64,000 bases of DNA from a bacterium (GCA_040752695.1 JBFMGO010000019.1:1-64000), one strand, 5' to 3'. Positions 31,600-60,524 are shown, counted from the first letter of the stretch. A program made the numbers and translations. Notes: a model not told the origin generated them from the sequence alone.

Positions 31600-31605
31600 A
31601 ATTTT

Positions 31606-31989: not shown

Positions 31990-32005
31990 AGTCTTTCGAT
32001 CCCGT

Positions 32006-34021: not shown

Positions 34022-34040
34022 AGTTTTCCCCTGCTCTGTA

Positions 34041-36118: not shown

Positions 36119-36122
36119 GGCA

Positions 36123-39902: not shown

Positions 39903-39920
39903 GGACGTATGTATCTCTAT

Positions 39921-40208: not shown

Positions 40209-40216
40209 AGTCGGTC

Positions 40217-40672
40217 CTACCTCCATCCTTCCTCGATTTTTTCCTTGATTTTCTTCATCTGCACCCGCGTTCCCTCATTGAGATGATGAGCCACTCCCTC
40301 ATCCGTATGTCCGCAGGCAGGATCCATTTCGAAGCGCTGCACCCACGTCATCTTGACCCCTTCGGGAACATCTTCATACGTCCAGTCAATATGCATGAAT
40401 TTGAAAGGATACAAAGGCTCCTGACGCTCGGCGTGCGCACGCCAGTTTTCACGGTCGATATCGCGCCAGGAAATCCAGCTCATCCGGCCGTGGTCCTCTT
40501 CGGGAAAAGTCGTGAGCCGGAAGGTGATTCGATTCCCCTCTTTTTTCAGAACTTCCGCTTTCTCGTACTCATGAGTGAACAGCTCGGGCCAGCGGGCTAT
40601 ATCATTGGTCAGATCGAAAACCGCGGCCTTATCGGCCTCAATCACAATTGAATTCTCGATTCGGGCAGACAT
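40217..40672 (-). CDS. Monodomain aromatase/cyclase (TcmN/WhiE-ORFVI type, SRPBCC)
   Basis: ENSIVI, TNDIARWPELF.EY, FRLT, SWISWR, PFKFMHIDWTY, MTWVQRFEM follow WhiE/TcmN ARO/CYC motifs. Confidence 0.92.
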   Translation of the reverse strand: MSARIENSIVIEADKAAVFDLTNDIARWPELFTHEYEKAEVLKKEGNRITFRLTTFPEEDHGRMSWISWRDIDRENWRAHAERQEPLYPFKFMHIDWTYEDVPEGVKMTWVQRFEMDPACGHTDEGVAHHLNEGTRVQMKKIKEKIEEGWR

Positions 40673-40700
40673 AATGCATTAAACCTCCTTAGAGTATTGT

Positions 40701-41543: not shown

Positions 41544-41584
41544 ATGTTTTCTTTAGCATGTGTTTTCTTCGGGTTTTCGGGCGA

Positions 41585-41664
41585 GCTGTCGACTGCCCGC
41601 TGTCGAACGCCGGCTGTTGACTTCCGGCTGGAGAACACCAGCTATTGACCTCTGGCTGTTATCC
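41585..41664. repeat. Degenerate 14-bp intergenic tandem repeat x6
   Basis: gctgtcgactgccc/gctgtcgaacgccg/gctgttgacttccg/gctggagaacacca/gctattgacctctg/gctgttatcc. Confidence 0.7.
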
Positions 41665-42593
41665 TATCGTTTGAACATATCGTGCATGGTCATCAGGCGT
41701 CGGGCATTTTCTCCCAAAAGGTCATCCAGTGCAGTTGGGCCGAGCCCCGGCATACCCATCATTTTCATGGGCATGGGAGGTTCGGCAGTACGTAAAAATT
41801 GCAGGACTTCCTCGGTGTTGGGGGTCGCTGTCCAGTCGGTTCCCCACAGCAGGTGCTTTGATCCGATCATGCCCAGCATCTTGCCCATTTCCATATGAAA
41901 GGCCACCGGGCTTTGCCGGATCATGATATTGGCTGTAGCGGTAATGGTCAGGTACATGTTGGAGTGGCGCTGAACCATGTTATAGGTCAGATCCGTCCAG
42001 GGGAAGCCCATATGCTCCACGATCATGGTCAGATCGGGAAAGTCCACGGCCACATCGTCGAGCAGGACCGGATAGTTATGCTTCATGTGGAAAAAGGGTG
42101 CCGGTGTAATGCCGGTATGAAAACTCACCGGCAGGTTCAATTCGAGGGCCTTCTCATAGAGCGGGTAGCAGAGCTCCCGGTCGTTGGGAAAATAGGCTCC
42201 GAAATCGTTCGGATTCATTTTCAGGCCGCGAAGCCCCAAATCGTTCACTGCCCGGTCCAGTTGATCCACCCTGTCTTCGGCATGCGGGTCTATACCGGCA
42301 AAGCCGACCAGACGGTCAGGGTACTCTTTTACCGCTTTACTGATCTCCTCATTGGAGAGGGTTTCATAACTGAGGTGATGAGCAAAACTAAGCTGGTGAA
42401 GCCAGGCAATCTCTATCCAGCACCGGTCCATGACCTCGAGCAGCCTTTTCAAGGTCGGCACCTGTTGCTTGAGCGGGGGAAATCCAACCCTGGCCCGAAG
42501 CTGATTCATTTCCTCAAGCAACTGCCAGCCTTGAGTGCCTGCTTCGTGGTCCAGCACTTCTTCACGGAAATGGGCATGCGTATCGATGATCAT
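41664..42593 (-). CDS. Amidohydrolase_2-family metalloenzyme (hydrolase or decarboxylase)
   Basis: IIDTHAH, GLRGLK, FHTG, EHMGFP, WGTDW. Confidence 0.88.
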   Translation of the reverse strand: MIIDTHAHFREEVLDHEAGTQGWQLLEEMNQLRARVGFPPLKQQVPTLKRLLEVMDRCWIEIAWLHQLSFAHHLSYETLSNEEISKAVKEYPDRLVGFAGIDPHAEDRVDQLDRAVNDLGLRGLKMNPNDFGAYFPNDRELCYPLYEKALELNLPVSFHTGITPAPFFHMKHNYPVLLDDVAVDFPDLTMIVEHMGFPWTDLTYNMVQRHSNMYLTITATANIMIRQSPVAFHMEMGKMLGMIGSKHLLWGTDWTATPNTEEVLQFLRTAEPPMPMKMMGMPGLGPTALDDLLGENARRLMTMHDMFKR

Positions 42594-42685
42594 GGGTTTT
42601 GATTATCTCCTTTCTGGCTATTCTCTCACGGAGCAACAGCGTGCTTAAAGTGCCTCCGGTGCGGTAGATGCGCATTGTTTCGCTC

Positions 42686-44635
42686 TCACGGGGCAACGGC
42701 CCCGTAGCGTTCAAGATCGGAGGCCACCCAGTCCAGGCCAAGCTCGCGGAGGCGGCTTATTTTCGGCAGTCCTTCTTCCGAGCAGCCGCGATAGTGATAA
42801 TATTCGGGCAGCATGCCCGGATGCTTCAGGTCGATGACGCTGTAGGGAAATCCAGGGCTCCCTTTGGGCCTGCGGACGAGGTCGTCATCCTTTGCCCTGA
42901 TACCCAGCCTGGCATTGAAGGCCCGGAAGATCTGGAAGATGCGCTCTCCGGCCTGGAATAAACTGCTGCCCGACATGGACAGGCCGGTTGTGATCCGAAA
43001 GATATCGGCCAGTTCATCCAGACCGACCTGACCGCTGAGTTTCAGGTTGATATAGGGAAAGATGCACAGGCCAAGGCTGTCGATCACGGTTTTAAAGTTC
43101 TCGTGCCACCAGACACTTCGTCCCTTGCCTACGGGGCTTTCCATTTCATATGCCTCGGCTTGCGGGCTTTTTCCCCAGCAGGCATCCATGGCAAAGGGCG
43201 TTCCATAGATGAAGGTGGTAAAGGGAAAGCTCTTGAGATGATCACCGCCGCGCGGCGAGACGACAAAGCCAAGGGTCCAGGACAGGTTTCGCTCGACCCG
43301 GTATGCCTGCCCCTTCATATGAAAGGCGAATTCCGCTGCCGCAGGTCCCAGATTTTTCGAGGCACCTTTTACCCCTTCAGCCAGGATCTGTCCGATCCCC
43401 TTACGGTAGGCGATCTCTCCGGCCAATTGGACAAAATCTTCCACCACACCGAACCGGACCGGATGCCCGATGTCGCCCTCAGTGAGAATGCCCCGCTGAC
43501 AGGCCTCAGCGGTAAAACCCATTACATAGCCCAGTTCCATAGAGTCCATGCCGAGTTCGTTGGCCATATTGGACAGGCGAAGAACTGCGCCAAAGTCGAA
43601 AATGCCCAGATTGACGCCAAGCGGAAAGGTATGGCCGAATTCAACTTTCGTTCCGCTTTCTCCCGTTTCCTTGTTTTCCCACTTCAGTGAACAGGCTAAA
43701 GGGCACCTCCAGCAGCCTCCCCGGCCTGAATAATAACGGGAGAGAAAAGCCTCCGGCTCAAGGCCCTGGCCCAGTTCCTGAGGAACCGGACGGGAATAGT
43801 TTTGCTGCCATAAATCACCGATTGAATTATAGGCGGTCATCAGATTGTGAGTGCCATTTTTCGCCCGGTCCTGAGCTCCCTGATTACTTTTGATCATTTC
43901 CAGCAAAGCGGACGAAAGACTTGCAAGATGCCGCTCGTCAGCCACGCTGACCCGCTTTTGCGTGTCTTGAAGGACAATGGCTTTGAGCTTTTTCGAGCCG
44001 AACAGGGCTCCTGCGCCGGTCCGGCCAAAGAAGCCCGGCCTCTTGCTGGAGCAGGCTACGCAGGCAAACTTGACGTCATGCTCTCCGGCAGGTCCGATCC
44101 TGGCCACGGTCGATCCCGGATGATGCTTTCTGATCTCGGCATCAGCCAAAGATATGTCCATCCCCAAAAACCTTTCGGCATCGTGAATCTCACATTGGCC
44201 ATCCGGGCCGATGAACAGATACACCCACCGGGCCGATTTTCCCCGTATAATCAGGTGCGAGTAGCCGAGCCTGCGAAACCGGGCACCGAAATCGCCCCCT
44301 GCATTCGTATCGCCATAGCAGCCGGTCAGGGGGCTGCGAAAGGTCAGGGTTGTGCGCGAGCAGGCTGGAAGCATGGTCCCGACACAAGGACCGGCACCGA
44401 AAATGATCGGGCTGTCATCAGCCTCTGAAGCGGTCCCGGGATCTGTCAGTTGATAGAGTAAAACGGCGTTTAACCCGCTGCCGCCAAGGAACAACCGGAG
44501 CTGATCATCGGGGACCGGATAGGTAAAGGCCTGGCCTGAGCCAAGATCCACCTCCAGGATGACACATTCCAGCCCGCCTGAACTCCTTGCGCCTGAAGCA
44601 CCTGCCTCTGACGCACGTGCGCCCGAACCACTCAT
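42686..44635 (-). CDS. AOR-family W/Mo enzyme 3
   Basis: SPLTG..GDTNAGG, GPAGE, GRTGAGALFGSKKLKAI, CWRCPLAC, RGGDHL, DSLGLC. Confidence 0.92.
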   Translation of the reverse strand: MSGSGARASEAGASGARSSGGLECVILEVDLGSGQAFTYPVPDDQLRLFLGGSGLNAVLLYQLTDPGTASEADDSPIIFGAGPCVGTMLPACSRTTLTFRSPLTGCYGDTNAGGDFGARFRRLGYSHLIIRGKSARWVYLFIGPDGQCEIHDAERFLGMDISLADAEIRKHHPGSTVARIGPAGEHDVKFACVACSSKRPGFFGRTGAGALFGSKKLKAIVLQDTQKRVSVADERHLASLSSALLEMIKSNQGAQDRAKNGTHNLMTAYNSIGDLWQQNYSRPVPQELGQGLEPEAFLSRYYSGRGGCWRCPLACSLKWENKETGESGTKVEFGHTFPLGVNLGIFDFGAVLRLSNMANELGMDSMELGYVMGFTAEACQRGILTEGDIGHPVRFGVVEDFVQLAGEIAYRKGIGQILAEGVKGASKNLGPAAAEFAFHMKGQAYRVERNLSWTLGFVVSPRGGDHLKSFPFTTFIYGTPFAMDACWGKSPQAEAYEMESPVGKGRSVWWHENFKTVIDSLGLCIFPYINLKLSGQVGLDELADIFRITTGLSMSGSSLFQAGERIFQIFRAFNARLGIRAKDDDLVRRPKGSPGFPYSVIDLKHPGMLPEYYHYRGCSEEGLPKISRLRELGLDWVASDLERYGAVAP

Positions 44636-46533
44636 AACAGGTGTTCACATTCTTTCGGATCGAGCCCGAGACGGCTCATGGTTTCCGGCAAAGGGATGCC
44701 GGTCTTTTGATCCCAGCCGTGCAAAAGGTAGTATTCATCCAGCATCCGGTTGAATTCATCCTTCTTCAGGACTTCTCTGCGGTCCTCTTTTTCCAGAGGG
44801 ATGAAGAAGCGATCGGGCAGGCTGTCATGCTTGCGCCTGATGCCTTCTCTGGCCAGAAATATCCGTTCCATGGTCAGGCAGCGCGAGGCTACATCCTTGA
44901 TTTCCGCTTCGTCTACCTCCCATCCTGCGGCCAGAGAGGTAAGTTGTGCGAATTCTTTAAACTCCAGGACGTAAGGTTTCAGCAGGCTTAAGAAAATCAG
45001 CTTGCAGATTCCCAACGTATCATAGATAGAGCAGACCGCTTCCGAGAACCAGACCTGACGGCCTTTCCCCTTGTAGGAAGTGTATTTGGGAGAAACGTAT
45101 CCGCCATATAATTCCTGCATCTTTTCAGCGGGGTAAGACATCGGCTCATAAATCGGACGGCTGCGCAAATGGTCCGCTCCGCGGGTGCTGATAGCTATCC
45201 CCAGAGCAAACCCTTTAAAAAACCGAAGGTCTGCGGTATCGGATTGCGGCAGGTATTTCACCCACGAAAGGTACCGGGAAGCTTCGGGAGGAAACTTTTC
45301 CGCTGCAATCCGCGCGCCCTCGGCCAGAATATCGCCAATCCCCTCCCGGTTATACATGGCCTCGACCAGCTTGATCACTCCTTTTTCGTCTCCCCAGGTC
45401 AGGGTCAGGCCATTGGTATCAGATGGCTTGAGAATCCCTTTCTCCTGAAGCTCGATAACCCAGGCCACCAGGCTGGCTGTGGTAGCCGAGTCCATACCCC
45501 ACCGGTTCAGCCTCTCGGTCAGATAAAGAATCGGCTCCCATCTGCGCAAACCGCATTCCGGCCCGAATTTGGCCATCTGGCCGAACTCCGGACCCTCACC
45601 TGCCGCACCCGCATAGGGTCCCTCCGTGACCTTGAAGTAATGACGGCAGGCAATCGGGCAGGAAAAGCAGGCACCGCGCTTTGGAGTAAAAAATTCCTGA
45701 AGCAACGACTTGGGAAAAACATTTTCATTTTCAGAGAAAAGGGTCTTAAGTCCATTGTCCACCCGTCCGATGCGTGCGGCCTGGTAGACGACATCGTAGA
45801 GAAAAGGAGTGCCATACTTGCTCAGTTCTTTTATGGTCACTCCCTCTTCAAGGAGACGGGATTGCAGCTTCCGGGAAAAATCGTTGAACTCTTCGGGTCT
45901 TGCCGGCTGGAGAACCTTATTCTTAAAAGCCACAACGGCTTTGAGATTCTTGCTGCCCATAAGACAGCCCATGCCTGTTCTTCCCGCCGCACTCTTGGCT
46001 CCTGACCGGATGGCGGCGAAGCGGATCAGGCGCTCACCCGCAGGGCCGATGCAGATTACCTGCGATGTCCTGCCATGCCTTTTACGCAGCTCCTCATCCG
46101 TTTCGATAGAGTCCATCCCCCAAAGATCCGAAGCATCCCGGAAATGAATCCGGCCCTCCTCGACTACCAGGTAAATAGGCTTATCGGCCCGGCCCATGAC
46201 AGCCAGCCCGGCAAAGTGGGACTGCTTCAAGGCAGCCCCGAATTGTCCTCCGATGCTCGAATCGCCCAACAACCCTGTTTCAGGTGAATGCCCGGATATC
46301 TGGCAGCGGGCGGTCGATGGTCCTTTAAGGCCGGTGAGAAAACCAGGGCCGATCAGCAATGGCTTGTCAGGGTCGAGCGGATCACCCCCGCCTTTCGTCA
46401 GTTCGAGTAAAAGATGCATGTTGAGAGCGCGGCCACCGAGCAAGCGCCTCCTCACCCCTTCATCGAAAAGGATCGTCTCTGACCGCTGTCTGGTAAGATC
46501 GATAAAGGCAAATGGCAGTTGATCGACTCTCAC
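44632..46533 (-). CDS. AOR-family W/Mo enzyme 4
   Basis: SPETG..GDSSIGG, GPAGE, GRTGMGCLMGSKNLKAV, CFSCPIAC, RGADHL, DTLGIC, MLDEYY...GWD. Confidence 0.92.
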   Translation of the reverse strand: MRVDQLPFAFIDLTRQRSETILFDEGVRRRLLGGRALNMHLLLELTKGGGDPLDPDKPLLIGPGFLTGLKGPSTARCQISGHSPETGLLGDSSIGGQFGAALKQSHFAGLAVMGRADKPIYLVVEEGRIHFRDASDLWGMDSIETDEELRKRHGRTSQVICIGPAGERLIRFAAIRSGAKSAAGRTGMGCLMGSKNLKAVVAFKNKVLQPARPEEFNDFSRKLQSRLLEEGVTIKELSKYGTPFLYDVVYQAARIGRVDNGLKTLFSENENVFPKSLLQEFFTPKRGACFSCPIACRHYFKVTEGPYAGAAGEGPEFGQMAKFGPECGLRRWEPILYLTERLNRWGMDSATTASLVAWVIELQEKGILKPSDTNGLTLTWGDEKGVIKLVEAMYNREGIGDILAEGARIAAEKFPPEASRYLSWVKYLPQSDTADLRFFKGFALGIAISTRGADHLRSRPIYEPMSYPAEKMQELYGGYVSPKYTSYKGKGRQVWFSEAVCSIYDTLGICKLIFLSLLKPYVLEFKEFAQLTSLAAGWEVDEAEIKDVASRCLTMERIFLAREGIRRKHDSLPDRFFIPLEKEDRREVLKKDEFNRMLDEYYLLHGWDQKTGIPLPETMSRLGLDPKECEHLL

Positions 46534-46982
46534 GTGCCGCTCTCTTGCTTTGCCAACGTGCCGCTCTCTTGTTTTGGCAACTCCCGGTGTCCCTGCGAAG
46601 GGGTGGGTGCCAGAGGAGCCGAGGCAAAAACCATCTCGAGAAGCTCCGGGCCGGTATTGGTAATTTCGTGAGTCTGGCCCTGATGAACAATGGCGGCCAG
46701 GTTCGGCTCGAGGCCGATATTTTGATCCCCGTCAAGAATCAAAAGCCCGGTACCGGAAATCACATAAATGGCCTCTTCGCCGTAATCATGCACATGGTTG
46801 ATGATCGTTTCACCCGGTTTCAGGTGCGCGTAACCCATGATCAGACGTTTCGCCTCAACGGTTTTGGGTGTCAGCATGACCCTGATCTCCCCGCCCCGGG
46901 AGGTCATGGGTGAAACCTCCTCCCTGCGAACAGCACTGTTCTGTGTGCTGTTCCGTGTACTGTTCTGTGTCTGGTTCAGCAT
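46530..46982 (-). CDS. Cupin-fold polyketide cyclase (TcmJ/WhiE-ORFII type)
   Basis: RGGEIRVMLTPKTV, HVHDYGEEAIYVISG, H..TNTG, PLAPTP..GH. Confidence 0.88.
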   Translation of the reverse strand: MLNQTQNSTRNSTQNSAVRREEVSPMTSRGGEIRVMLTPKTVEAKRLIMGYAHLKPGETIINHVHDYGEEAIYVISGTGLLILDGDQNIGLEPNLAAIVHQGQTHEITNTGPELLEMVFASAPLAPTPSQGHRELPKQESGTLAKQESGT

Positions 46983-47036
46983 ACTGGTATTCTCCTTCTT
47001 ATCCCCTCAAGGTGTCTTTTTAAGATATCGCAGTGT

Positions 47037-50000
47037 CTATTCCTCGTCCTCTTCCTCATCCTCTTGGGCCAGCTTGGCCTTGTAGTCCGAAACATCGACC
47101 CCCATTTTCCCCAGTTCATCATAGAGAGCGGACTGAACCATTCTGGGTGCCCCCTGGAATGCAAAGGCCAGGTCTGCATCTTCGATCACCTGAGCGCCGC
47201 GACCGCGCGCACTGTTCGTCGCTCCGGTCTGAATACCTTCCAGGGCTACTGGGCGAAACATTTCAGGGATAACACTTTCCATAATCGAATCAAGTTTTTT
47301 CTTTGTTTCAGGATGCCAATCCATAGTCTGTTCCTTTCTTTCTTGAGGTTCTTCCGCAGGTCCATCGGCGGAAGAAGTGCCTCCGGCCCGGAGGCCGGCA
47401 CGCAATCCGGCATAGACTCGTGGATAGAACTGGTTGATGTATTTAAGAAAACGCTGGAGCTTAATAAGGTTGAACACGGGCCCTTCAATCTGCATCAGCC
47501 CCTTTTGGGTGGCCTGCATGGGATGAAGATCTCCCCGCATCAGATCGTGCCAGGTTCTGCTCGAAAGCCTGATCCTGACCGGCGCATCAGCCACTTCACC
47601 CATTTCCACCTGAAACCGGCCATCACCAATCCGCTCGGCATAGGCGGTGTTCAAATCTTCGATCAGGTACTGCACCACTATCCTTTCTGCGGGAAGTGCC
47701 TGCAAGGCTTCGTGATCATCATTGATATCACCTGCCAGGCGGTGGATCAATTCGTCGAGCATGGCTTCGTCGGAAATAGCCGCTTCGGGCACAGATGCGC
47801 AGTCAGCAGCAGGCTTCCCCAAGTCTTCAGCAGCAGCAGGCTGTGACGATTCTTGTGCAGCAGTCTGTTGATTATTTTTCGCCTCCTCCACCGCCAGAGG
47901 AAAGAGCCGGTTAATACTGTTCAAAAGGCGCTGCATCCGGATAAGCTTGAAGATCGGTCCTTCCGGCTGAGATCGCTTTTGCTGGGCTGCCTGCATGGGA
48001 TGGATGATACCGGCCATGATTTCATACCAGGTGCGGCTGTCAGTCCTGAGAACCACCTCTGCATCCTGCCGGTGACCCATTTCTATCTCGTACCTGCGAT
48101 CTTCTATGATTTCGGTGTAAGCGAGGCCAAGATCCGAAAGGACATAGGCAACCGTGGTGCGTCCGGGAGGAAGACTCTCCAGCGCATTCTCATCGCCGTT
48201 AATCTTGTCTTTCAGGGCACGGACGAGCTTTTCCAGACTGGCCGTATCCCGCACGGGGAAGTCACCGTCAGCAGCGGCAGCTTTGTCGGCAGCGGTAACG
48301 GTACCGGCTGTCGCCGGTGGTGCAGGCACTGCACCGGAGCCGTTGCCGGAGCCATTATCCCGGTCCGGGGAGGAGGAACCGGCCCTGGCAGGTGAAGAAG
48401 AGGCCGTATCCGGCGAACAGGCCGCGGCCTGGGCAGCATCGGGGAAAAGCCGGTTGATGTTCGTCAGCAGGCGATGGGTCTTGATCAGTTTAAAAACCGG
48501 GCCTTCCGGTTTGATGAGACCTTTTTGTGCTGCCTGCATGGGATGGATGCTGCCCCACATGAGCTGTTTCCAGGTCGTTCCTGACATGGTCAGCCAGATA
48601 TCCGCATCCGCCGCCCTGCCCATGATTACCTGAAAAGATCCTTCGTCCATGACTTCCGAATAGGAAGCATCGATATCTTCCAGAATGAAATTAATCTTCA
48701 TTCTGGTTTTCGGCAAACTCCCCATAGCCTGCCGATCTTTGTTCACCCTATCCGCCAGAGCACTGACCAGCCGCTCACAATCCTCCTGATTGCGCAAGGG
48801 TATCATCTCAGGATTGGTGATAGCGGTTTGGACAGCGACGGTGGTTTTGGCAGCCGGGGCAGGCACTGGCCCGGCTGGTCTTGCAGGTCCCTTTTGGGGC
48901 ACAGGCTGATCCTCTTCGGGGAGGGATATTCCAAGCTCGGCCAGGTGATTTCGGGTTATGCAGCGAAAGGGCTCAGGGGTGAGTATCAGGGCAGCCCGCA
49001 CGAAATCCTGAAGCTGAACCATCCGAGATCCGCGCTCCAGAGCATACTCTTCAGCACGCTGCCGGATGCCTCCTGCTGCCAGATCTCTGGCAAAAAAGGG
49101 CTTTTTCTGAATCGATTGCAGAAAAATTTCCTCAAGGCCGCTCTCCCATACGAGAGGCTGACGGGGATAGCGGGGATCGAGGTCAAAGGCCTGCCCGGAA
49201 AGGAATGCATTCATCAGATTTGTCAGTTTTTGAAGGCACTTGTGCCTTTTCCCGCTGGACGGCAATTCTAAAAGGTTCACCATGCGCGCCAGTTTGATTG
49301 CACTTTCCTCGCTATCCAGATCAAGCCCCGCAAGACCGGCTGCATCCTTGCTGCTTAGGGAAGCGAGCGGAAAGGCCCGCACGTCCTCCTGACTCGTGGT
49401 AATCTGGCCATTGCCATGGTCAGGCCGGTCGAGAATCATGAGGTTGAAAGGCAGGGCAGTGTCTGCCCCGGACCCTGCACCTGACTCAGCCACTGCACCT
49501 GATCCCGATAGCGGCAGGGGCAGAAGCTCCAGCAGATTATCATTTGATTTCCGTTCCTGATAGGCCCGGGCGGTCTTGATAATCCAGGGCGTTGACATCG
49601 ACTGATCAAGAACATGGAAACTGTTGATGCCAAGAGCTTCATAGAGGTGCAGGTCCTCCGGTCGAATCAGGGGAATACGCAGATAGGTTTCGGGGACGCT
49701 TAATAGTTGTCTCATGGTATTCAGGAGGGGATAGTCAAGCAGGAACCCTTCCTGACCGTTGATCGATTGTGAAGCCTGACCATAGGCATTGGCAGCATAG
49801 CCCTGATTGGCACTGCTCCAGGCATGAAGCGGATTCAATTCAAGGCTCAAGGTGGCGTTGACTCTCCGGCGGATCGACTCGAGCTTTTTAAGATCCCGGT
49901 TCAAGAAAGGATCGATGACCAGGTAATCGACTCCCCGCTCTATCCACAAGAGGGCATCAGCCAAAGAGGCGACGCCCCGCACAATGACACCGATTCCCGG

Positions 50001-50351
50001 TGCATGGCGAAGGATCATTTCCGCCAGGTAGGGACTGGCAACCAACACCCGGTCAACCTGCACTTCCAAAAGCCAATCCAGGTGCCTGCGCAAGGACCGG
50101 TCCCCGTCCCGCCGGAACTCATAGTTACCGGCAGAAGGAGCCGAGTTGTCATAGATAAAGCGGATTCCCCGGCAATGGCAGTTCGCTATGAAGGAGTCTG
50201 CCTCCTTCTTCTCTACAGGTGTTCGGCGGTATGAGGGAATGCTTCCTCCGACCGGATCACATCCCAGAGCACCTATCAGGCTATCCACCCGAAGACCGTC
50301 GAGCAGATGGAAAATTTCGGTATCCCAGTTACATGGGAGAATCAGGCGCAT
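47037..50351 (-). CDS. Multidomain protein: Cys-less U32-like domain + helical (PCP-reductase/DUF2621-like) domain + 3 SCP2 repeats + second helical domain
   Basis: N-terminus paralogous to 18252 U32 (PCNWD, IRPEDLHLYE) but cluster Cys absent; three HPMQA..K....EGP.F.LI repeats; W......L...IP..FR helical domains; GAGGAG RBS. Confidence 0.82.
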   Translation of the reverse strand: MRLILPCNWDTEIFHLLDGLRVDSLIGALGCDPVGGSIPSYRRTPVEKKEADSFIANCHCRGIRFIYDNSAPSAGNYEFRRDGDRSLRRHLDWLLEVQVDRVLVASPYLAEMILRHAPGIGVIVRGVASLADALLWIERGVDYLVIDPFLNRDLKKLESIRRRVNATLSLELNPLHAWSSANQGYAANAYGQASQSINGQEGFLLDYPLLNTMRQLLSVPETYLRIPLIRPEDLHLYEALGINSFHVLDQSMSTPWIIKTARAYQERKSNDNLLELLPLPLSGSGAVAESGAGSGADTALPFNLMILDRPDHGNGQITTSQEDVRAFPLASLSSKDAAGLAGLDLDSEESAIKLARMVNLLELPSSGKRHKCLQKLTNLMNAFLSGQAFDLDPRYPRQPLVWESGLEEIFLQSIQKKPFFARDLAAGGIRQRAEEYALERGSRMVQLQDFVRAALILTPEPFRCITRNHLAELGISLPEEDQPVPQKGPARPAGPVPAPAAKTTVAVQTAITNPEMIPLRNQEDCERLVSALADRVNKDRQAMGSLPKTRMKINFILEDIDASYSEVMDEGSFQVIMGRAADADIWLTMSGTTWKQLMWGSIHPMQAAQKGLIKPEGPVFKLIKTHRLLTNINRLFPDAAQAAACSPDTASSSPARAGSSSPDRDNGSGNGSGAVPAPPATAGTVTAADKAAAADGDFPVRDTASLEKLVRALKDKINGDENALESLPPGRTTVAYVLSDLGLAYTEIIEDRRYEIEMGHRQDAEVVLRTDSRTWYEIMAGIIHPMQAAQQKRSQPEGPIFKLIRMQRLLNSINRLFPLAVEEAKNNQQTAAQESSQPAAAEDLGKPAADCASVPEAAISDEAMLDELIHRLAGDINDDHEALQALPAERIVVQYLIEDLNTAYAERIGDGRFQVEMGEVADAPVRIRLSSRTWHDLMRGDLHPMQATQKGLMQIEGPVFNLIKLQRFLKYINQFYPRVYAGLRAGLRAGGTSSADGPAEEPQERKEQTMDWHPETKKKLDSIMESVIPEMFRPVALEGIQTGATNSARGRGAQVIEDADLAFAFQGAPRMVQSALYDELGKMGVDVSDYKAKLAQEDEEEDEE

Positions 50352-50400
50352 ACATCCTTCTCCTCTTGTGTTTAAAAAGTTATTTTGTTAAAATAAAAAA

Positions 50401-50580
50401 GGCGCGTTTCTGATACAAAAAGAGCGCTGCCCCTTCAAGGGCGAGAAGAGATCAAAGCTTTGGTCGGTGGCGATCTCTTCTCGCTTTCCTGTTTCTAAGG
50501 GAAAGTGTATTTTTTAGATGCTTCCCTGTGATTCCCCCGTATGAGTGCCCATACCGGGCCGCCATTATAGGGGAATACAG
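50401..50580 (-). promoter_or_regulatory. Structured intergenic leader upstream of the 1104-aa gene
   Basis: Perfect 13-bp stem gcgagaagagatc (50441-50453) / gatctcttctcgc (50472-50484); second stem ctgtgattcccc / ggggaatacag (50526-50580); minus-strand TATAAT near 50564-50569. Confidence 0.45.
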
Positions 50581-50617
50581 GTTGTTTAAAGGATGGGGAA
50601 CATATGAATGGGTCGCA

Positions 50618-51391
50618 TTAGTTTAATATTAACTGAACGATGCGTGCAAATTCATCGAGAGATTCTGCTTTGACAGCTTTCCTCAGAAGTATCTTTAAGA
50701 TTGAGGGATCGTTTATCTCGTTTATGGTTTCTTTCATCGACTCTGGTATAACATCAAAACGAGCCTCAAGACTATCAATGACAACCTCTCGAGCATTTTG
50801 GATGATTCCCTGCTGCACTCCTTCCTGCATTCCCTGCTGCATCCCCTGTTTTCTGCCTTCCTCGATGAGTGAATCAGCAATGGTAGGCATGATCTCACCT
50901 CCTTCATCCGATAAGGCACTCTCTACAGCCTCCTTGATATTTCCATAGGTTACCTGTTCCTTTGGAGCTGCATTGAGAAAGTATCTTATCAGGGTTTCGA
51001 TGAATTCCATTCCTGTTTTTTTCCCGGCCAGGTCCCTCAAAAGACCGATCCTATTTTTTCCCCGGTCAGGTCCCTCAAAAGACCGAATATTTCCGGTAAA
51101 TGCTCCCTCAGATCTTTCCGGAAGATATATTTCAGAGCGAGTAAGGCTGCCCGCAGCATCACTCTGCCCTTTATCTCCTGGTCAGGTACTGTTGAGGCAT
51201 CCCAGATGAGATACTCAAAAGCCGGGATAAAGCAGGACATATCTTCTCCAGTTGGTATATTCCAGGGACTCAAGATCCAACAGGTTCAGGATATCACCCG
51301 GCAGATAGTTTACTAGAAAGTCTTCCGCATTGCTCTTGGTGGAAAAAACGTTTTTAAAAAACTTATCATGGGGATTATTGATCTCATTCAT
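50618..51391 (-). pseudogene. Rpn-family (YhgA-like) recombination-promoting nuclease, internally deleted and frameshifted
   Basis: MNEINNPHDKFFKNVF..L..YLP from ATG 51391 breaks off; nuclease core missing; 38-bp duplication (51012-51048/51050-51086) shifts frame; C-terminal MPTIADSLIEEGRKQGMQQGMQEG. Confidence 0.85.
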
Positions 51392-51487
51392 AAAATAAAT
51401 ATAGCATGTGCTTCACTATCCTGGCAAGGAGGCTTTTTTCTTTCTATGTCTCAATACAACAAACTTGCCTTTTTGTAAGTGCCATTT

Positions 51488-52312
51488 TCACCAGATATCA
51501 TATGTCCCTGCCAGAACCGGCAGCATAACCTGCAAGAACCTGTCCGGTGCTTCGAGGAAGAAGAAGTGGCCCAGGTCTTCCAGAACGGTCAGGCGGCCAT
51601 TCTCCACCCGCTCGACAATCATTTCCCCGAACCGGGGCAGACCTACCTTATCGAGCTCGGCGAAAATGCAAAAGGTCGGCACCTTAATCCTGTCCAGGAG
51701 CGGCAGTAAATCCACCCGCTTGAGGTTATTGAGAGCATGATGGATATGCGGCTCGGTTTCGTGCAGCCAGTTGAGCACGACCTTGTCCCTTACCCTGTCC
51801 ACGGTTTCATCGGAAAGGGTACGGCGTGGTTTCGGAAAAAAGGAGGGAATAAGGTGCTCGACAATCTGAGCCGGGGTCAGGTTCTCCACCTGCGGCTTAA
51901 AATGATGGAGTGACGGGCTGACTCCGCACCCGAAGCAGGCGAGGCGTTTGACATCAGCCGGATAACGGATGGCCAGGTAGAGGGCCAGGCTTCCGCCGAG
52001 TGAATGCCCGGCAACATTGACCGGTGCCAATCCCAACTCATGAATCAGGAAGTCTATATCATCGACAAGGATATCGAAACTGTATTCTCCGGAGGGTTTA
52101 TCCGACCAGCCATGACCACGCAGGTCCATGGTGATCATCGAACACCGGCCAGACAGTGCCTCCCGCACCGGGTCCCAGATGGCCTGCGTGTCCCGCATGC
52201 CATGCAGAAACAGCCAGGATTCTCCGCTGCCGGTGCGGCTGTAGGCCAATCTGATGCCCTGACGGTTGACCCACCCGGTTTCTTCTTTTCGTTTTTCGTT
52301 TTTCATTTCCAT
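51488..52312 (-). CDS. Alpha/beta hydrolase (candidate thioesterase/esterase)
   Basis: FLHG, DLRGHGWS, GHSLGG nucleophile, GHFFFLEAP. Confidence 0.9.
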   Translation of the reverse strand: MEMKNEKRKEETGWVNRQGIRLAYSRTGSGESWLFLHGMRDTQAIWDPVREALSGRCSMITMDLRGHGWSDKPSGEYSFDILVDDIDFLIHELGLAPVNVAGHSLGGSLALYLAIRYPADVKRLACFGCGVSPSLHHFKPQVENLTPAQIVEHLIPSFFPKPRRTLSDETVDRVRDKVVLNWLHETEPHIHHALNNLKRVDLLPLLDRIKVPTFCIFAELDKVGLPRFGEMIVERVENGRLTVLEDLGHFFFLEAPDRFLQVMLPVLAGTYDIW

Positions 52313-52362
52313 CGTACCTTCCGGTGAGTTCTCTATTCATGGATATTCTGACAGGCAGTGAA

Positions 52363-53739
52363 TTACTCATGGATATTCTGATACGCTGTGGCATACTTCA
52401 AGATTTCCTCATCCCATTCACCGAAGTCGCGGGCTAGGCAGACATAGGCCCATTGCGGATGCTTTTTCCGGTATGCGTCGATCAAATTCCACCATCCGTT
52501 CTCGATGTGCGGCGAAACGTAAAAGCGGGGGTGCAAAAGATCGTCGTCTTCGGCAATGATCCTTTCCCGTCGGGCGATGCGCTCAAGTTCGGTATTGGCA
52601 TAGATGCGGATGCCAAGGCTTATCCAGGCACAGTCAGGGTCCATCCCGGCCACCCTGTCCAGGCTCTCTGTGATCGTTTCCAGGGTCTCGTTCGGGCCCC
52701 CTAAAAGCAAAGAGACAATCAGCCGCATCCCGCTCGCCTTGACCATTTCGGCCGCTTCCATGATCTGATCCACGGTAAAGCCCTTGCCAAGTCCTTTAAG
52801 CGTGACGGAAGATGCCGAGTCCATACCGCCAAAGTCGATGGAGTTGCATCCTGAGCGGGCTGCCAAGAGCAGAAAATCCTGTGACAGGTACTCTGGATGC
52901 GGATAGAAGGTGGCATCCCAGCGAATGTCAAGACCGGCCCTTAAAATCTCCTCACAGATGGCGGCGGCATGGTCCAGCGGCAGATTGAACAGGTTATCCA
53001 CGAAACTGAAGTCGGAAATTCCAAGGTTCCGGCGGCAATACTTCATTTCAGCCGCTACCTGGCGGGGGTCCCGAAAGCGCAGGGTTTGCCCTTCCAGATT
53101 CGGATAAACACAGTAGGAGCAGGACATCGGACAGCCTCTCTTCGACTGGATATTGCCCCAGATTCCGGCATTGATGGTTGCATACTGGGCGCAGTGACCG
53201 GCCTGCCGCCAGGGTTTCGGAAAATCAGTCAGATCCGGGACCTTCCAGGGCTCGGCAGGTTTTCCCCGAAGCATGAGGCCCGGAATATCATCATACGGTT
53301 TCCCTTCGGATAATCTGCGAAGCAGCTCTGCCATGGCCATTTCACCATCTCCGATAATGCCGATCTCAAGATCCAGATACTTCAAAAGGGCCTGTGGAGC
53401 CAGAGAGAATCCTGAACCACCGGCAACGATGGGAACCCGAGCATGCTTTTTCAAAAGATGAGCGAATTTTTGATGGGTCCGAGTATAATCGATGTTCAAA
53501 AATTCCGGATAGAGGGTATTGTCCAGATTGCGGATCGACAGGCCGATAACATCCGGCCCGCTTCCATTGGATCTCTGAATAGCCTCGATCACTTTTTGCT
53601 CGGGTTTTGGTTCGAAGCAAAGATCGAGCATGTCTACCCTGTGCCCGAGGCTGCGCAGCCAGCCAGCCAGGGTTGCCATCCCCAGCGGGTAGATGGCAGG
53701 AACCTTTTCAAAATTGGAAGAAACAAGAAGTACTCGCAT
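52363..53739 (-). CDS. Cobalamin-dependent radical SAM enzyme (short, SIRNLD type)
   Basis: YPLGMA, IGLSIRNLDN, GDGE, KRGCPMSCSYCVYP.LEG, LGGPNET. Confidence 0.92.
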   Translation of the reverse strand: MRVLLVSSNFEKVPAIYPLGMATLAGWLRSLGHRVDMLDLCFEPKPEQKVIEAIQRSNGSGPDVIGLSIRNLDNTLYPEFLNIDYTRTHQKFAHLLKKHARVPIVAGGSGFSLAPQALLKYLDLEIGIIGDGEMAMAELLRRLSEGKPYDDIPGLMLRGKPAEPWKVPDLTDFPKPWRQAGHCAQYATINAGIWGNIQSKRGCPMSCSYCVYPNLEGQTLRFRDPRQVAAEMKYCRRNLGISDFSFVDNLFNLPLDHAAAICEEILRAGLDIRWDATFYPHPEYLSQDFLLLAARSGCNSIDFGGMDSASSVTLKGLGKGFTVDQIMEAAEMVKASGMRLIVSLLLGGPNETLETITESLDRVAGMDPDCAWISLGIRIYANTELERIARRERIIAEDDDLLHPRFYVSPHIENGWWNLIDAYRKKHPQWAYVCLARDFGEWDEEILKYATAYQNIHE

Positions 53740-53746
53740 AGCTTCG

Positions 53747-54064
53747 CTATACTATCTGAAGATCAGCTAAAGAGACGCCGAAGGCCTCCAGGCTGTCTAT
53801 AGTCAGGGGTAAAAATTCTTTCGGTGTGCTCTTTAAAAAGCCCCGTGCAACCGCATCCTGCGTAACCTGCTCAAGGTGAGCCTCGCCGGCGATTTTTTCC
53901 GCCGTGCTGATGACGCCATTTTTGGCAAGTTCTTTATATTGAGCAGGAATGACCAAAAGCATGTTGCTCAACAGCTCCTTTGCTTCATTGCTCCAGTCCA
54001 CAATATCCTCCTTTTGTGCCTCTTTCCTCTTCTCCTTCTTCCATGGCCATGGTGTCACTCTCAC
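53747..54064 (-). CDS. Small helical protein (DUF2621/PCP-reductase-like), paralog of domains in the 1104-aa protein
   Basis: WSNEAKELL..ML..IP..YKELA...AE.IA....V...VARGF...TP. Confidence 0.7.
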   Translation of the reverse strand: MRVTPWPWKKEKRKEAQKEDIVDWSNEAKELLSNMLLVIPAQYKELAKNGVISTAEKIAGEAHLEQVTQDAVARGFLKSTPKEFLPLTIDSLEAFGVSLADLQIV

Positions 54065-54467
54065 AGGGGGCTTCCAGTGAGGCGAGAATTTTTTTATATG
54101 CCTGGCACATGAGTCCCAGAACGGAAATGGAACGGTTCATGGCTTCCTGATCGTCCACCCGTGCCACCTCGATCTTTTTCGCTGCCAGGGCAATCATGGG
54201 ATTGGTCTTGCGGGCCAAAATCTCGTGAATCGTATTGGCTGACATCTGAAAGACAAAGTCAGCATCCTCGACTCCCTCACGATCAACCCATATCTTACCG
54301 CTTTCAATCACATACGAGAATTCGACATCGAGATCCGGCAGGATGAATCCCATGATCATGTCACTGCCGGAAAGCTTCGGGCCGTAAGTGCCCTGGCTCA
54401 TGCTGGTGCAGAGCCTGTCCATAATGGACCAGAATTGTTCTTTGGAACCGTTGTAAATACCGCTCAT
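53985..54467 (-). CDS. SCP2 sterol/lipid carrier domain protein
   Basis: DADFVFQMSANTIHEILARKTNPMIALAAKKIEV. Confidence 0.8.
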   Translation of the reverse strand: MSGIYNGSKEQFWSIMDRLCTSMSQGTYGPKLSGSDMIMGFILPDLDVEFSYVIESGKIWVDREGVEDADFVFQMSANTIHEILARKTNPMIALAAKKIEVARVDDQEAMNRSISVLGLMCQAYKKILASLEAPCESDTMAMEEGEEERGTKGGYCGLEQ

Positions 54468-56578
54468 ACAGCTTCTCCTTCATAGATGGGGCAGGAAGCG
54501 GGTTGGCTTTGAAAAATCGACAGTAAGATATCACCGGCAGCCGGTATCCTGCTTTTCAGCTCTTGCAGGGCCGATTGCAGCGCCTGGCCTCTGGCCAGCA
54601 CCAATTCCAGCAACTGGGCGTCGGTGAGATCGATCCTGAAATCGGCTGCCTCCGGCTGACCATTCTTAAGTTCATAGGCCTGACACCGGCCGTTTCTTCT
54701 CAGGTGCAGATAAAGATAGGCAAAAGAGGCGGCGAAAGCCACCTTGATCTGCCGGCCTCTTGCAAGACTCCTCAACTCCTGATCGGAATCGAGCAGCCGG
54801 TTTATCCGCAGCTTGATGGTGCGGCGTTGAAACATGACCCCGCCAAAATCAAAATCAAGATACCGCTGATACTTTTCCGTCCAGGCAAGTAAAGTTATGA
54901 GCTGGTCAAGATCGCCATCGAAATGGACCTCAGGATCTGATACGACATCGAGAAGGTCGCGCTCGCCCGATCCGAAAAGTGCAGACAGGATTCTGTCCGG
55001 AATCCTGAGCGAGCACTCGTAGCCGGGCTTTTGGGGCGTAAACCCGTATGTCCTGCCGTTCTCGATCAAAAGACTAAAGGAAAAGGCGTCATGATGGACC
55101 CGAAGATGAATCGTGAGGTCCCCTGCCTCCTTCTCCAGCACAGGATTCAAGTCAGGTAAAAGGCCGTTAAATATTTCCTGCCACTGCTCCAGGCTCTCTG
55201 GCGGTCCTCCGACGAGGGGGATGAAGGTTTGCACCCAGGAGAATTTATTCAGCATGGTCTGGAACTGCTCACGGGGCTGCAACGAGATGTGATCTTTGAC
55301 CCAACGCTCCCGGTAATAGAAATCGCGGGTGAATCTGGCAATCAGCTTGTCGCATCCAGGCGGATTGACACTAGTGACAATATGATGGCCGTCGTATTTA
55401 TCCCAATCCCGGTGCAGGAGCCATCCCTTCTCTACACATTCGTCGAAGAAGGGACTTCCGGGCAGCGGGGACAGAACCGAAAATCCTGCCGTATCAAGAT
55501 CAAGGTCAATGGCATACTGCCGGGTCTGCCACATCATCTCTTCGGTTTCACCCGGAATGCCGATGATAAAAAAGCCCCACACGGAAATGCCATGATCCTT
55601 CAGCAGCTTGACAGCGGTTTTTGCATCCTCGGGGTTTATCCCTTTGCAGATTTTTTTGAGCGACTCAGGGTGCGGTGATTCAATGCCCATTTCCACAGCC
55701 CTGATTCCTGCTTTGGCCATAAGCTTGACCATTTCCGGATTGCGGGCTACTTCGGTGACGCGAGTGCCGATAATGGGGCTGACCACAGACCCCAGGTCCT
55801 CGGCCATGAACATTTCGAGAAACCTGCCAAACCGCTCTTTTCGCAAAGGCGTAGTATCGGAAAACAAGCCGACGAACCAGGCCCCATGGCGGTCGATCAA
55901 AAGACGGATCTCCTCCATGGTCCGCTCGGGTGATTTTTCACGGAGCTTATGCCCCCAAAAGCGCTTGCCTGTACAAAAGCTGCACGGGTAAGGACACCCG
56001 CGGTTCAGTTCCACCTGATAGAGAATGCGGCTTGCGGAAAAGTGATAAGCTGGCAGACGCATAGTGTCGAGATCGCTGATCAACTCCCGGTCAGGATTAT
56101 CGACCAGCCTCTTGTCATCGTCGAGGTAGCTGACACCCTGAGCGTTTTTGAATTGGAACCCGGAGGTGACCAGATCGCGCAGCGTAATCTCTCCCTCTCC
56201 CCGGACAATGAGATCAATAAGGCCCGACTGCAACAGGTCCAGCCTGCTGAAGGTTGCTCCATGTCCTCCGGCGATAATGGGAACACCAGGTGCCATCGCC
56301 CTGATCGCTGCGGCCATTTTCAGTGCCTTGGAGATCGAAGGTGTGGCCACGACCGACAGGCCGATCAGATCCGGCTGGAATTGGGCGATTTCGGCTAAGA
56401 TCTTTTCCCTGCTCTGCCACAGGCCTTCCAAAATGCGCACTTCAGCCACATCTTCGATATAAGCGGCCAGGCAGACCAGGCCGATTCCGCTGATAAAACC
56501 GGCTTCCATGCGATATTCATCGTCAGATTCGACAACCTGAGCCTCCGGAGGCTCAATGAGCATTACTTTCATATTCAT
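54464..56578 (-). CDS. Cobalamin-dependent radical SAM enzyme with C-terminal SCP2-like extension
   Basis: IGLVCLAA, GGHGAT, RGEGE, NRGCPYPCSFC, GIES, SPLPGS; ADFRIDLTDAQL SCP2-like end; start placed at ATG 56578 after GAAGGA (ORF track extends to 56671). Confidence 0.9.
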   Translation of the reverse strand: MNMKVMLIEPPEAQVVESDDEYRMEAGFISGIGLVCLAAYIEDVAEVRILEGLWQSREKILAEIAQFQPDLIGLSVVATPSISKALKMAAAIRAMAPGVPIIAGGHGATFSRLDLLQSGLIDLIVRGEGEITLRDLVTSGFQFKNAQGVSYLDDDKRLVDNPDRELISDLDTMRLPAYHFSASRILYQVELNRGCPYPCSFCTGKRFWGHKLREKSPERTMEEIRLLIDRHGAWFVGLFSDTTPLRKERFGRFLEMFMAEDLGSVVSPIIGTRVTEVARNPEMVKLMAKAGIRAVEMGIESPHPESLKKICKGINPEDAKTAVKLLKDHGISVWGFFIIGIPGETEEMMWQTRQYAIDLDLDTAGFSVLSPLPGSPFFDECVEKGWLLHRDWDKYDGHHIVTSVNPPGCDKLIARFTRDFYYRERWVKDHISLQPREQFQTMLNKFSWVQTFIPLVGGPPESLEQWQEIFNGLLPDLNPVLEKEAGDLTIHLRVHHDAFSFSLLIENGRTYGFTPQKPGYECSLRIPDRILSALFGSGERDLLDVVSDPEVHFDGDLDQLITLLAWTEKYQRYLDFDFGGVMFQRRTIKLRINRLLDSDQELRSLARGRQIKVAFAASFAYLYLHLRRNGRCQAYELKNGQPEAADFRIDLTDAQLLELVLARGQALQSALQELKSRIPAAGDILLSIFQSQPASCPIYEGEAV

Positions 56579-56622
56579 CTGTCCTTCCAACTGAAAAAGA
56601 GTAGAAATATAAGCGTCTTTTT

Positions 56623-59186: not shown

Positions 59187-59199
59187 GTGCGTTTTATCA

Positions 59200-60510: not shown

Positions 60511-60524
60511 CGATTCCTTGTTTT

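Follow-up and report, generated by a model that had tools for sequence, protein, structure and literature searches.

The gene and its domains

The subject of this report is one gene in the bacterial DNA stretch GCA_040752695.1 JBFMGO010000019.1:1-64000, which is called the window here and was analysed over its full length of 64,000 nucleotides. The gene lies at 47037..50351 and encodes a fusion protein of 1104 amino acids, P0001, in which a U32-type barrel that has lost all of its family's conserved Cys is followed by a helical module, three SCP2 repeats and a second helical module. A sequence-only reading of this DNA had described the gene as a fusion of a Cys-less U32 domain with three SCP2 domains. 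The open reading frame (ORF) that it reported is present as a single run of 1104 codons without interruption, on the minus strand, which that reading had left unstated, and a Shine-Dalgarno-like sequence, AGAGGAGAAGG, lies just 5' of the ATG at 50351. The series of parts that it listed (a helical domain, three SCP2 repeats, a second helical domain, linkers and an acidic tail) agrees with the Pfam matches and the translation, in which long low-complexity linkers rich in Ala, Pro and Ser connect the domains. A scan for promoters and terminators on the strand of the gene gave nothing remarkable. The parts are listed below with the evidence for each, pLDDT being the predicted local distance difference test of the AlphaFold2 models.

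47037..50351, minus strand: whole P0001 gene, stop codon included, 1104 residues (ORF list, translation)
49512..50351, minus strand: degenerate U32-like TIM barrel without Fe-S ligands, residues 1-280 (BLASTP, PDB match, AlphaFold2)
49158..49511, minus strand: low-confidence linker, residues 281-398, in place of the family's CX4CX2CX2C segment (pLDDT 41-75)
48906..49157, minus strand: PCP_red-like helical module 1, residues 399-482 (PF08369 below cut-off, pLDDT 90-96, whole-genome profile match)
48429..48860, minus strand: SCP2 repeat 1, residues 498-641 (Pfam SCP2 and Alkyl_sulf_C, repeat comparison, profile match)
47883..48314, minus strand: SCP2 repeat 2, residues 680-823 (Pfam, repeat comparison, profile match)
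47400..47816, minus strand: SCP2 repeat 3, residues 846-984 (best Pfam stretch 891-970, AlphaFold2, Foldseek)
47079..47336, minus strand: PCP_red/DUF2621-like helical module 2, residues 1006-1091 (DUF2621 below cut-off, aligns with module 1)
47040..47069, minus strand: acidic tail AQEDEEEDEE, residues 1095-1104 (translation)

Two relatives of P0001 are needed throughout. P0002 is a U32-like paralogue of 389 residues encoded in the same window at 18252..19421 on the minus strand, and P0003 is a protein of 772 residues from a metagenome-assembled genome (MAG) of Aminicenantes, whose locus is designated L051.

The N-terminal barrel

BLASTP aligns residues 1-288 of P0001 with P0002 over 294 columns, 31% of them identical (E 4e-47). 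The sequence-only reading had aligned about 400 residues of the two proteins by eye; the homology stands, and since the similarity stops at about residue 288, it covers about 290 residues and not 400. The shared motifs that it named, CNWD, GF..DY and RPEDLH.YE, are found in both proteins, with the exception of P.D.(I/V)GG, of which P0001 has only D.VGG. The Cys-rich C-terminal motif of P0002 has no counterpart in P0001. The Pfam U32 family, PF01136, matches P0001 with 14.5 bits (E 0.022), below its gathering score of 22.4, a cut-off that is passed by both P0002 (47.0 bits, E 2.5e-12) and P0003 (32.1 bits). The P0001 sequence nevertheless matches the solved U32 barrel 5d88 (phmmer, E 2.1e-7). 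An AlphaFold2 model of residues 1-490, built from 114 family sequences, has a pLDDT of 86.9 and a predicted template modelling score (pTM) of 0.82, with pLDDT of 93-98 across residues 1-170. The top Foldseek match of this model is again 5d88 (E 1.4e-8, TM-score normalised to the target 0.73), and VIA-align superposes the two with Z 21.9 and a root-mean-square deviation of 2.6 A over 224 residues, the second-best match having Z 14.1. A failure of this domain to match U32 had been named beforehand as grounds for giving up the proposal; BLASTP, phmmer, Foldseek and VIA-align concur that it does match. The N-terminal domain of P0001 is a U32-type barrel by homology and by fold, though it lies below the Pfam U32 cut-off.

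Loss of the cofactor ligands

What has become of the cofactor site in this barrel? Among 1.84 billion representatives, an exhaustive HMMER search identified 721 relatives at E<=1e-3; nearly all have 360-500 residues. An alignment of 151 family sequences contains 10 columns with Cys in at least 35% of the sequences. The barrel of the family carries a four-Cys motif, C76, C182, C186 and C218 in P0002 numbering, each Cys being present in 85-98% of the sequences, and the C-terminal part carries another, C341, C346, C349 and C352 in the same numbering, each present in 91-93%. P0001 has Cys in none of the 10 columns, and all 150 of the other sequences have it in at least four. The C-terminal Cys columns are gaps or Ser in P0001, the Cys segment having been deleted. 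Both near-invariant His are absent from P0001 as well; P0002 retains both His along with both four-Cys motifs. The loss of the cluster cysteines, which the sequence-only reading had asserted, is thus borne out. Its particular replacements hold for NAPCAG (SAPSAG in P0001) and DYCYSLC (DYPLLNT); for NNTCLHEC, C182 and C186 align with H176 and S180, so that the register given was off by one residue.

The whole of P0001 contains nine Cys, at residues 7, 31, 58, 60, 372, 464, 525, 645 and 851, none of them at a conserved column, and P0003 has no Cys at the columns matching these nine. Judging from their positions in the barrel topology, the scattered Cys would make no alternative site. In Fe-S U32 proteins four conserved Cys bind a [4Fe-4S] cluster that is essential for activity (PMC6747719), and these four Cys of the UbiU/UbiV/TrhP/RlhA-type U32 enzymes have no counterpart in P0001.

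The losses are not confined to Cys. Among 44 columns kept in at least 85% of 113 relatives, P0001 retains 24 and has lost 20, the poorest retention of the 114 sequences compared, followed by P0006 with 31 and P0003 with 36. Substituted in P0001 besides the Cys are R38, N70, H186, H192, K246 and R250. The surviving positions include N8, G35, F65, Y67, E78, P107, G140, R152, N173, the IRPED motif and Y237, and appear to be mostly structural; the family-invariant polar residues kept in P0001 include R230, E232 and D233.

The SCP2 repeats and the helical modules

The Pfam SCP2 family, PF02036, matches P0001 in three stretches (E 3.3e-18, 66.3 bits against a cut-off of 21.3). The three repeats are pairwise 39-45% identical (E 1e-36 to 1e-39), a degree of divergence that indicates an old triplication rather than an artefact of assembly. 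In an AlphaFold2 model of residues 846-1104 the pLDDT is 90-96 over repeat 3 and 83-89 over module 2, and its top Foldseek matches are SCP2 structures: 3bn8/3cnu (AF1534, E 4.9e-6), human SCP2-like domains and the UbiJ-SCP2 structure 6h6p (E 4.6e-5). Against the matched SCP2 structures, repeat 3 has TM-scores normalised to the target of 0.64-0.77 at 13-24% sequence identity. That the repeats adopt the SCP2 fold, on which the earlier proposal had also been made to depend, is confirmed by the Pfam matches above cut-off and, for repeat 3, by the model and Foldseek.

Helical modules 1 and 2 (residues 399-482 and 1006-1091) are homologous to each other by profile and by alignment. PF08369 (PCP_red) gives 28.0-30.1 bits against a cut-off of 32.5, module 1 being the best at 30.1 bits (E 5e-7), and PF11084 (DUF2621) gives 18.3-19.7 bits on module 2 against 27.7 (E 8.8e-4 to 2.4e-3). 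Profile matches in the PDB are weak, the nearest being Asr4154 (2l09, E 0.16) and the C-terminal domain of ChlB (2kru, E 1.5). The modules are best described as PCP_red-like, and are probably homologous to PCP_red/DUF2621 though they lie below the Pfam cut-offs.

A relative in another phylum

The best non-self match of P0001 in the HMMER search is P0003 (E 5.1e-104), which is identical to the translation of L051:12023-14341, on a contig of the Aminicenantes MAG, a member of another phylum. P0003 is like P0001 in the order of its parts, U32-like barrel, PCP_red-like module and SCP2 repeats, and unlike it in having two SCP2 repeats, no second PCP_red module and no acidic tail. Its two SCP2 repeats are 85% identical, indicating a recent duplication that was independent of the one in P0001. 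Barrel loss is seen in both proteins: P0003 lacks three Cys (C182, C186 and C218) and one His (H192), but its first barrel Cys and its C-terminal four are still in place, whereas P0001 keeps none. Part by part, P0001 and P0003 are 38-41% identical in the SCP2 domains, 37% in PCP_red and 31% in the barrel. In a FastTree phylogeny of 156 sequences the two are sisters with support of 0.72, and the grouping with P0058 has support of 0.92; their terminal branches are long, 1.17 for P0001 and 1.41 for P0003 against a median of 0.68. The degenerate member P0006 falls elsewhere in the tree, apart from both.

The two genes also share their surroundings. In L051 the order is FtsX, FtsX, flavin mononucleotide (FMN) reductase, three B12-binding radical S-adenosylmethionine (B12-radical SAM) enzymes, a U32-like protein of 392 residues, another B12-radical SAM enzyme, a second U32-like protein of 387 residues, an alpha/beta hydrolase, the fusion, and two oxidoreductases of the aldehyde:ferredoxin oxidoreductase (AOR) family. 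In the window the order is B12-radical SAM, alpha/beta hydrolase, a transposase-like ORF of 140 residues, the fusion, a cupin, AOR and AOR. The neighbours of the P0001 gene are these.

52363..53739, minus strand: B12-radical SAM (Pfam; 39% identity, E 2e-118, to its L051 counterpart)
51488..52312, minus strand: alpha/beta hydrolase (Pfam; 38% identity, E 1.5e-63, to its L051 counterpart)
46530..46982, minus strand: cupin (Pfam), directly after the fusion in window order
44632..46533, minus strand: AOR (Pfam; 46% identity to the first L051 AOR after the fusion)
42686..44635, minus strand: AOR (Pfam; 44% identity to the second L051 AOR after the fusion)

Between window and L051, the B12-radical SAM enzyme, the hydrolase, the fusion and the two AORs are thus 39%, 38%, 29%, 46% and 44% identical, respectively. 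Because the order is the same and the neighbours are 38-46% identical, the fusion can be regarded as part of a module conserved in the order radical SAM - hydrolase - fusion - AOR - AOR, and these are the partners to which gene order ties it most closely. In L051 the two intact U32-like genes are just upstream of the hydrolase gene, whereas in the window the P0002 gene is 28 kb off. The comparison of the two loci indicates that the fusion architecture is real and inherited.

We note that the ORF of 140 residues between hydrolase and fusion (50618..51040, minus strand) has Gln/Gly-rich repeats and a weak match to ISNCY transposases (E 1.4e-4), that L051 has nothing at this position, and that a motif of about 30 nucleotides (GGTCTTTTGAGGGACCTG.CCGGG.AAAAAA) occurs twice in tandem just upstream of the ORF, at 51040..51100. 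The ORF and the tandem motif may be the remnant of a mobile element that split the operon.

How widespread is the fusion? None of 60 relatives of the window's genome has it at full length; eight gave matches, seven over the barrel alone and one (G037) with a weak SCP2-like match. The SCP2 subtype was found in none of 60 relatives of the Aminicenantes genome, and two scans of metagenome contigs seeded on patterns of the SCP2 repeats gave no relative of the fusion. Word-indexed searches of 5.8 billion proteins with the full length and with residues 490-1104 returned only the query itself, and a word-indexed search with residues 846-1104 against shorter proteins gave no match; since the word-indexed searches also missed P0003, they are weak evidence of rarity.

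A predicted dimer with the intact paralogue

The sequence-only reading had supposed that the degenerate barrel pairs with the active U32 protein of the window. A complex of P0001 residues 1-490 (barrel and module 1) with P0002 was modelled from our own alignments, so that the calibration of the test, in which the ipSAE mark is reached by 58 of 80 solved complexes and by 2 of 110 mismatched pairs, holds only roughly; close cousins of a true partner also pass it. The median ipSAE of the model is 0.86, against 0.00 for the best of three controls, with at least 77% of contacts common to the runs and a partner pLDDT of at least 82. The predicted interface is pseudo-symmetric. On P0002 it takes in the Cys/His loops 75-76, 183-199, 213-217 and 341-347, and on P0001 the degenerate equivalents 72-76, 179-193 and 203-211, among other residues. 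This model supports the view that the U32-like branch would dimerise through its cluster-bearing face, and that P0001 may keep that face. The model passes its controls, though this does not make the pairing a specific one: P0001 and P0002 are paralogues, and the pass shows a dimer mode of the family rather than a particular pairing in the cell. An argument from interface-specific conservation in P0001 was tried and dropped; 2 of the 24 retained and 3 of the 20 lost conserved positions lie at the predicted interface, from which nothing follows.

The surrounding cluster

About 35 consecutive genes on the minus strand, 13880..62844, form a co-directional run that includes the P0001 gene, and 34 of their proteins were scanned with Pfam. 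The scan found six B12-binding radical SAM proteins, four AOR-family oxidoreductases, a FabF-like ketosynthase pair, an SRPBCC cyclase, a PF04199 cyclase, Amidohydro_2, a cupin, an alpha/beta hydrolase, PIG-L, an MMPL exporter, two LolA-like proteins, an ABC/FtsX transporter, a GT4 glycosyltransferase, DUF2141, SAM synthetase and one U32-family protein, P0002. UbiA, UbiD and UbiE were not found among the 34 proteins. The gene content is that of a cluster for anaerobe-style biosynthesis and export of a lipid or polyketide. The window's AORs match aldehyde:ferredoxin oxidoreductases better than BamB (E 3.3e-75 versus 2.3e-48), and an assignment as BamB-type ring reductases was rejected on this ground. 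A ladderane cluster was also considered and rejected, the ladderane papers listed making no mention of U32 or SCP2. Besides the neighbours already given, four genes of the run bear on the fusion.

18252..19421, minus strand: intact U32-like paralogue P0002, 389 residues, candidate dimer partner (PF01136, key residues, complex model)
37442..37870, minus strand: free SCP2 of the same subtype, between two B12-radical SAM genes (repeat profile E 1.2e-20)
53985..54467, minus strand: second free SCP2-like gene, 160 residues (repeat profile E 3.4e-10; Alkyl_sulf_C E 6.6e-5)
53747..54064, minus strand: free PCP_red/DUF2621-like gene, about 105 residues, directly upstream of the conserved B12-radical SAM gene

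The modules of P0001 thus occur in the cluster as separate genes too. The free SCP2 at 37442..37870 is 23-28% identical to the P0001 repeats and matches Pfam SCP2 with E 2.7e-5; the gene at 53985..54467 matches it with E 9.7e-4 and 19.9 bits, slightly under the cut-off of 21.3. The gene at 53747..54064 matches a module profile from which it had been excluded (E 2.2e-13) as well as DUF2621 (E 2.8e-8, 34.3 bits against 27.7); since this ORF shares 80 nucleotides with the one before it, the position of its start codon is uncertain. These SCP2-like and PCP_red/DUF2621-like small genes overlap each other between two B12-radical SAM genes, and the same two modules are fused in the C-terminal part of P0001. 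A profile search of the 6.05-Mb genome located five SCP2 copies and three PCP_red-like modules, every one of them within this cluster. A free SCP2 of this subtype in the Aminicenantes genome adjoins DUF2141 and a B12-radical SAM gene, so that in both genomes B12-radical SAM genes have free SCP2 copies beside them.

Some further genes deserve a brief description. At 15573..18108 (minus strand) two FabF-like ketosynthase genes adjoin, the second matching FabF less strongly (318 versus 435 bits), an arrangement reminiscent of the pairs of ketosynthase and chain-length factor. At 18252..20980 (minus strand) a PIG-L/LmbE-type deacetylase, a protein of 249 residues without a family and the intact U32-like gene stand in a row. 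The genome has a third U32-like paralogue, of 397 residues (G000:C118:8580-9773, minus strand), in which the first barrel Cys is Ser and the second His is Thr; it sits among genes of two-component regulators, outside the biosynthetic clusters.

The two-cluster U32 branch

The barrel of P0001 is homologous to those of a branch of U32-like proteins with two four-Cys motifs, with members of 360-500 residues that are 25-38% identical to it. Within this two-cluster branch only P0001, of the 151 sequences, lacks every conserved Cys, and SCP2 domains occur only in P0001 and P0003; some members, P0004, P0005, P0015 and P0020, share a C-terminal PCP_red-like module. A rough census of neighbours, made by phmmer with our own seeds at 80 loci that contain a member of the branch, counted UbiE-type methyltransferases at 22, B12-radical SAM enzymes at 14, ketosynthases at 10, the SCP2 subtype at 3 and AORs at 1, all of these counts being understated.

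Four relatives of the window's class (loci L017-L020, in genomes G015, G016, G018 and G026) share a conserved operon that contains two U32 types. It comprises UbiD, UbiA, a xylose-isomerase-like TIM barrel, a GFO/IDH/MocA oxidoreductase, a canonical U32 protein of about 300 residues, an unassigned protein of about 256-291 residues, a U32-like protein of about 361 residues, UbiE and an Rce1-like protein. This looks like an O2-independent quinone pathway with one canonical and one two-cluster U32 protein. In two Omnitrophota MAGs (L083 6017..15619 and L072 3065..13037) a fusion of SCP2 to FMN reductase is followed by B12-radical SAM and ketosynthase genes, and the same loci have two or three tandem U32-like paralogues, acyl carrier protein (ACP) and FabA. 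The fusion of SCP2 to FMN reductase is another way to attach SCP2 to a redox partner in such clusters. The census and these operon contexts together tie the U32-like branch to hydrophobic aromatic or acyl substrates, often as sets of paralogues.

Discussion

What might a U32 protein do without its cofactor ligands? We hold, with moderate confidence, that P0001 is a U32-type subunit without redox function, a pseudo-U32, which has its own lipid-carrier arm in the same chain and serves anaerobic tailoring enzymes. The most economical account would make it a pseudoenzyme scaffold, analogous to UbiV plus UbiT in one chain. A U32-like subunit would have abandoned redox chemistry while retaining its fold and, probably, its dimer face, and would have gained a tethered lipid-carrier arm. 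The dead barrel would dock on the intact two-cluster U32-like enzyme P0002, as UbiV does on UbiU, and the tethered SCP2 domains, like UbiT and UbiJ, would bind hydrophobic intermediates, here of an acyl or polyketide-lipid kind. The arm might then pass these intermediates among the U32-like oxidase or hydroxylase, the B12-radical SAM enzymes, the hydrolase and the tungsten-type AORs, in what would be the tailoring metabolon proposed by the sequence-only reading. Docking or capping may be the function of the PCP_red-like modules, as is suggested by the presence in the cluster of separate SCP2 and PCP_red genes beside radical SAM genes.

Several points weigh against this reading. Cys-less U32 subfamilies exist, such as PepU32#5 (PMC6747719), so that loss of Cys is no proof that all activity is gone, and the barrel of P0001 keeps N8, E78, R152, N173, the IRPED motif and Y237. 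The complex that passed its controls is a pair of paralogues, and a homodimer of either protein would probably pass too. The P0002 gene is 28 kb from the fusion gene, whose conserved neighbours encode a radical SAM enzyme, a hydrolase and two AORs. The assignment to PCP_red is below the cut-off in Pfam and weak against the PDB (E 0.16-1.5). Finally, only two instances of the architecture were found, and evidence from conservation is accordingly thin.

The gene order bears most directly on another explanation, which we consider possible though not probable, namely that P0001 works as a carrier in the acid/aldehyde branch alone. A free fatty or polyketide acid, released by the hydrolase, would travel on the SCP2 arm to the two AORs and the adjacent B12-radical SAM enzyme, and the barrel would be a relic or a docking piece without a U32 partner. 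The conserved order of radical SAM, hydrolase, fusion, AOR and AOR, with neighbours 38-46% identical, is what such a carrier would lead one to expect, as are AORs that are closest to true aldehyde:ferredoxin oxidoreductases, free SCP2 genes that adjoin B12-radical SAM genes in both genomes, and a barrel that is the least conserved domain between P0001 and P0003. Yet the barrel is still confidently folded and has been kept in both lineages, two intact U32-like genes are immediately upstream of the hydrolase gene in L051, and the complex model with P0002 passes its controls. The pseudoenzyme scaffold and the carrier for the acid/aldehyde branch are compatible and can both be true; the conserved gene order favours the latter. 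One might ask instead whether the barrel remains active without Fe-S, as an enzyme or as a ligand-binding subunit, and might bind the O-donor (prephenate in UbiU/V) or the substrate; the chain would then be catalytic, with carriers of its own, and no pseudoenzyme. The family-invariant polar residues that survive, N8, E78, R152, N173, R230, E232, D233 and Y237, would suit such a role, U32 subfamilies without conserved Cys are on record (PMC6747719), and P0003 keeps its C-terminal four-Cys motif, which implies that the ancestral fusion still bore cofactor, at least in part. Nevertheless 20 of the 44 conserved positions have gone, including both His, R38, N70, K246 and R250, the entire C-terminal Cys segment is deleted, the terminal branch of P0001 is long (1.17 versus a median of 0.68), and Fe-S clusters are held to be essential in characterised U32 proteins (PMC6747719, PMC10990095). 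We judge a still-active barrel unlikely. An artefact is far less likely again. The draft genome is in 239 contigs and a transposase-like ORF fragment of 140 residues lies just upstream, so that one might suspect a misassembled or decaying gene, a false fusion or repeats made by the assembly; but 1104 open codons follow a ribosome-binding site, each domain has its own homology or a confident fold, repeats that are merely 39-45% identical are no assembly duplicates, and the same domain order is found in an independent genome of another phylum.

A bolder extension of the pseudoenzyme reading, rather doubtful at present, is that the dead U32 subunit serves as a non-covalent carrier protein of an anaerobic lipid assembly line. 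Anchored on the active two-cluster U32 enzyme, it would let its three SCP2 domains swing the substrate among U32, B12-radical SAM enzymes and tungsten AORs, each SCP2 domain possibly being tuned to a different intermediate. If this is true, SCP2 plus PCP_red would be a reusable docking unit, an analogue of ACP-based channelling that works without a covalent tether.

In the literature searched we found no description of a Cys-less U32 protein fused to SCP2, nor of a cluster of this type. Three features are new here: the fused subunit has lost its cofactor ligands completely, its SCP2 arm is triple, and its PCP_red-like modules recur in the cluster as free genes. The locus is a natural dissection, in which an intact two-cluster subunit, a subunit without any cofactor ligand, and covalently attached carriers occur side by side. 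If the pairing is true, the fusion would be a handle for co-purifying the active enzyme with its substrate, could help identify the product of the B12-radical SAM / AOR / ketosynthase cluster, and would let one ask which side of a U32 dimer does the chemistry. The SCP2 and PCP_red-like modules are also flagged as possible accessory factors of lipid-modifying B12-radical SAM enzymes.

Comparison with known systems

No enzymes other than U32 proteins are known to use an organic O-donor in place of O2 for hydroxylation, and the majority of U32 subfamilies have yet to be characterised (PMC10990095). The nearest known system is UbiU-UbiV-UbiT of Proteobacteria, which carries out O2-independent hydroxylation in ubiquinone synthesis with two U32 proteins and an SCP2 accessory acting on a hydrophobic substrate. 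There UbiU and UbiV form a heterodimer that works with the SCP2 protein UbiT, and Zymomonas has a natural ubiT-ubiU gene fusion (both from PMC6747719). The likeness here is that barrel and SCP2 are in one chain, that an intact paralogue is encoded in the cluster, and that the heterodimer model passes its controls. The differences are considerable. At E<=1e-3 no NCBIfam family, UbiU and UbiV included, matches P0001 or P0002. The Cys spacing of the present subfamily is Cx105Cx3Cx31C in the barrel and CX4CX2CX2C at the C terminus, versus CX6CX16CX38C or CXnCX12CX3C in UbiU/UbiV (PMC6747719). Both subunits of UbiU/UbiV carry a cluster, whereas one subunit here has none. P0001 has three SCP2 domains and PCP_red-like modules, against one SCP2 in the UbiU-UbiV-UbiT system, and the context is a ketosynthase / B12-radical SAM / AOR / MMPL cluster, not ubiquinone genes. 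By these comparisons P0001 and P0002 are judged not to be orthologues of UbiU, UbiV or UbiT. The UbiT/U/V-like scaffold of the sequence-only reading is borne out as regards the U32 barrel and the SCP2 folds, the likeness not extending to orthology.

A second comparison is with UbiJ (6h6p) and other SCP2 carriers. Repeat 3 of P0001 shares their SCP2 fold, and the holding of lipid intermediates is the presumed role; unlike UbiJ, the SCP2 domains of P0001 are triplicated in tandem and tethered to what would be a pseudoenzyme.

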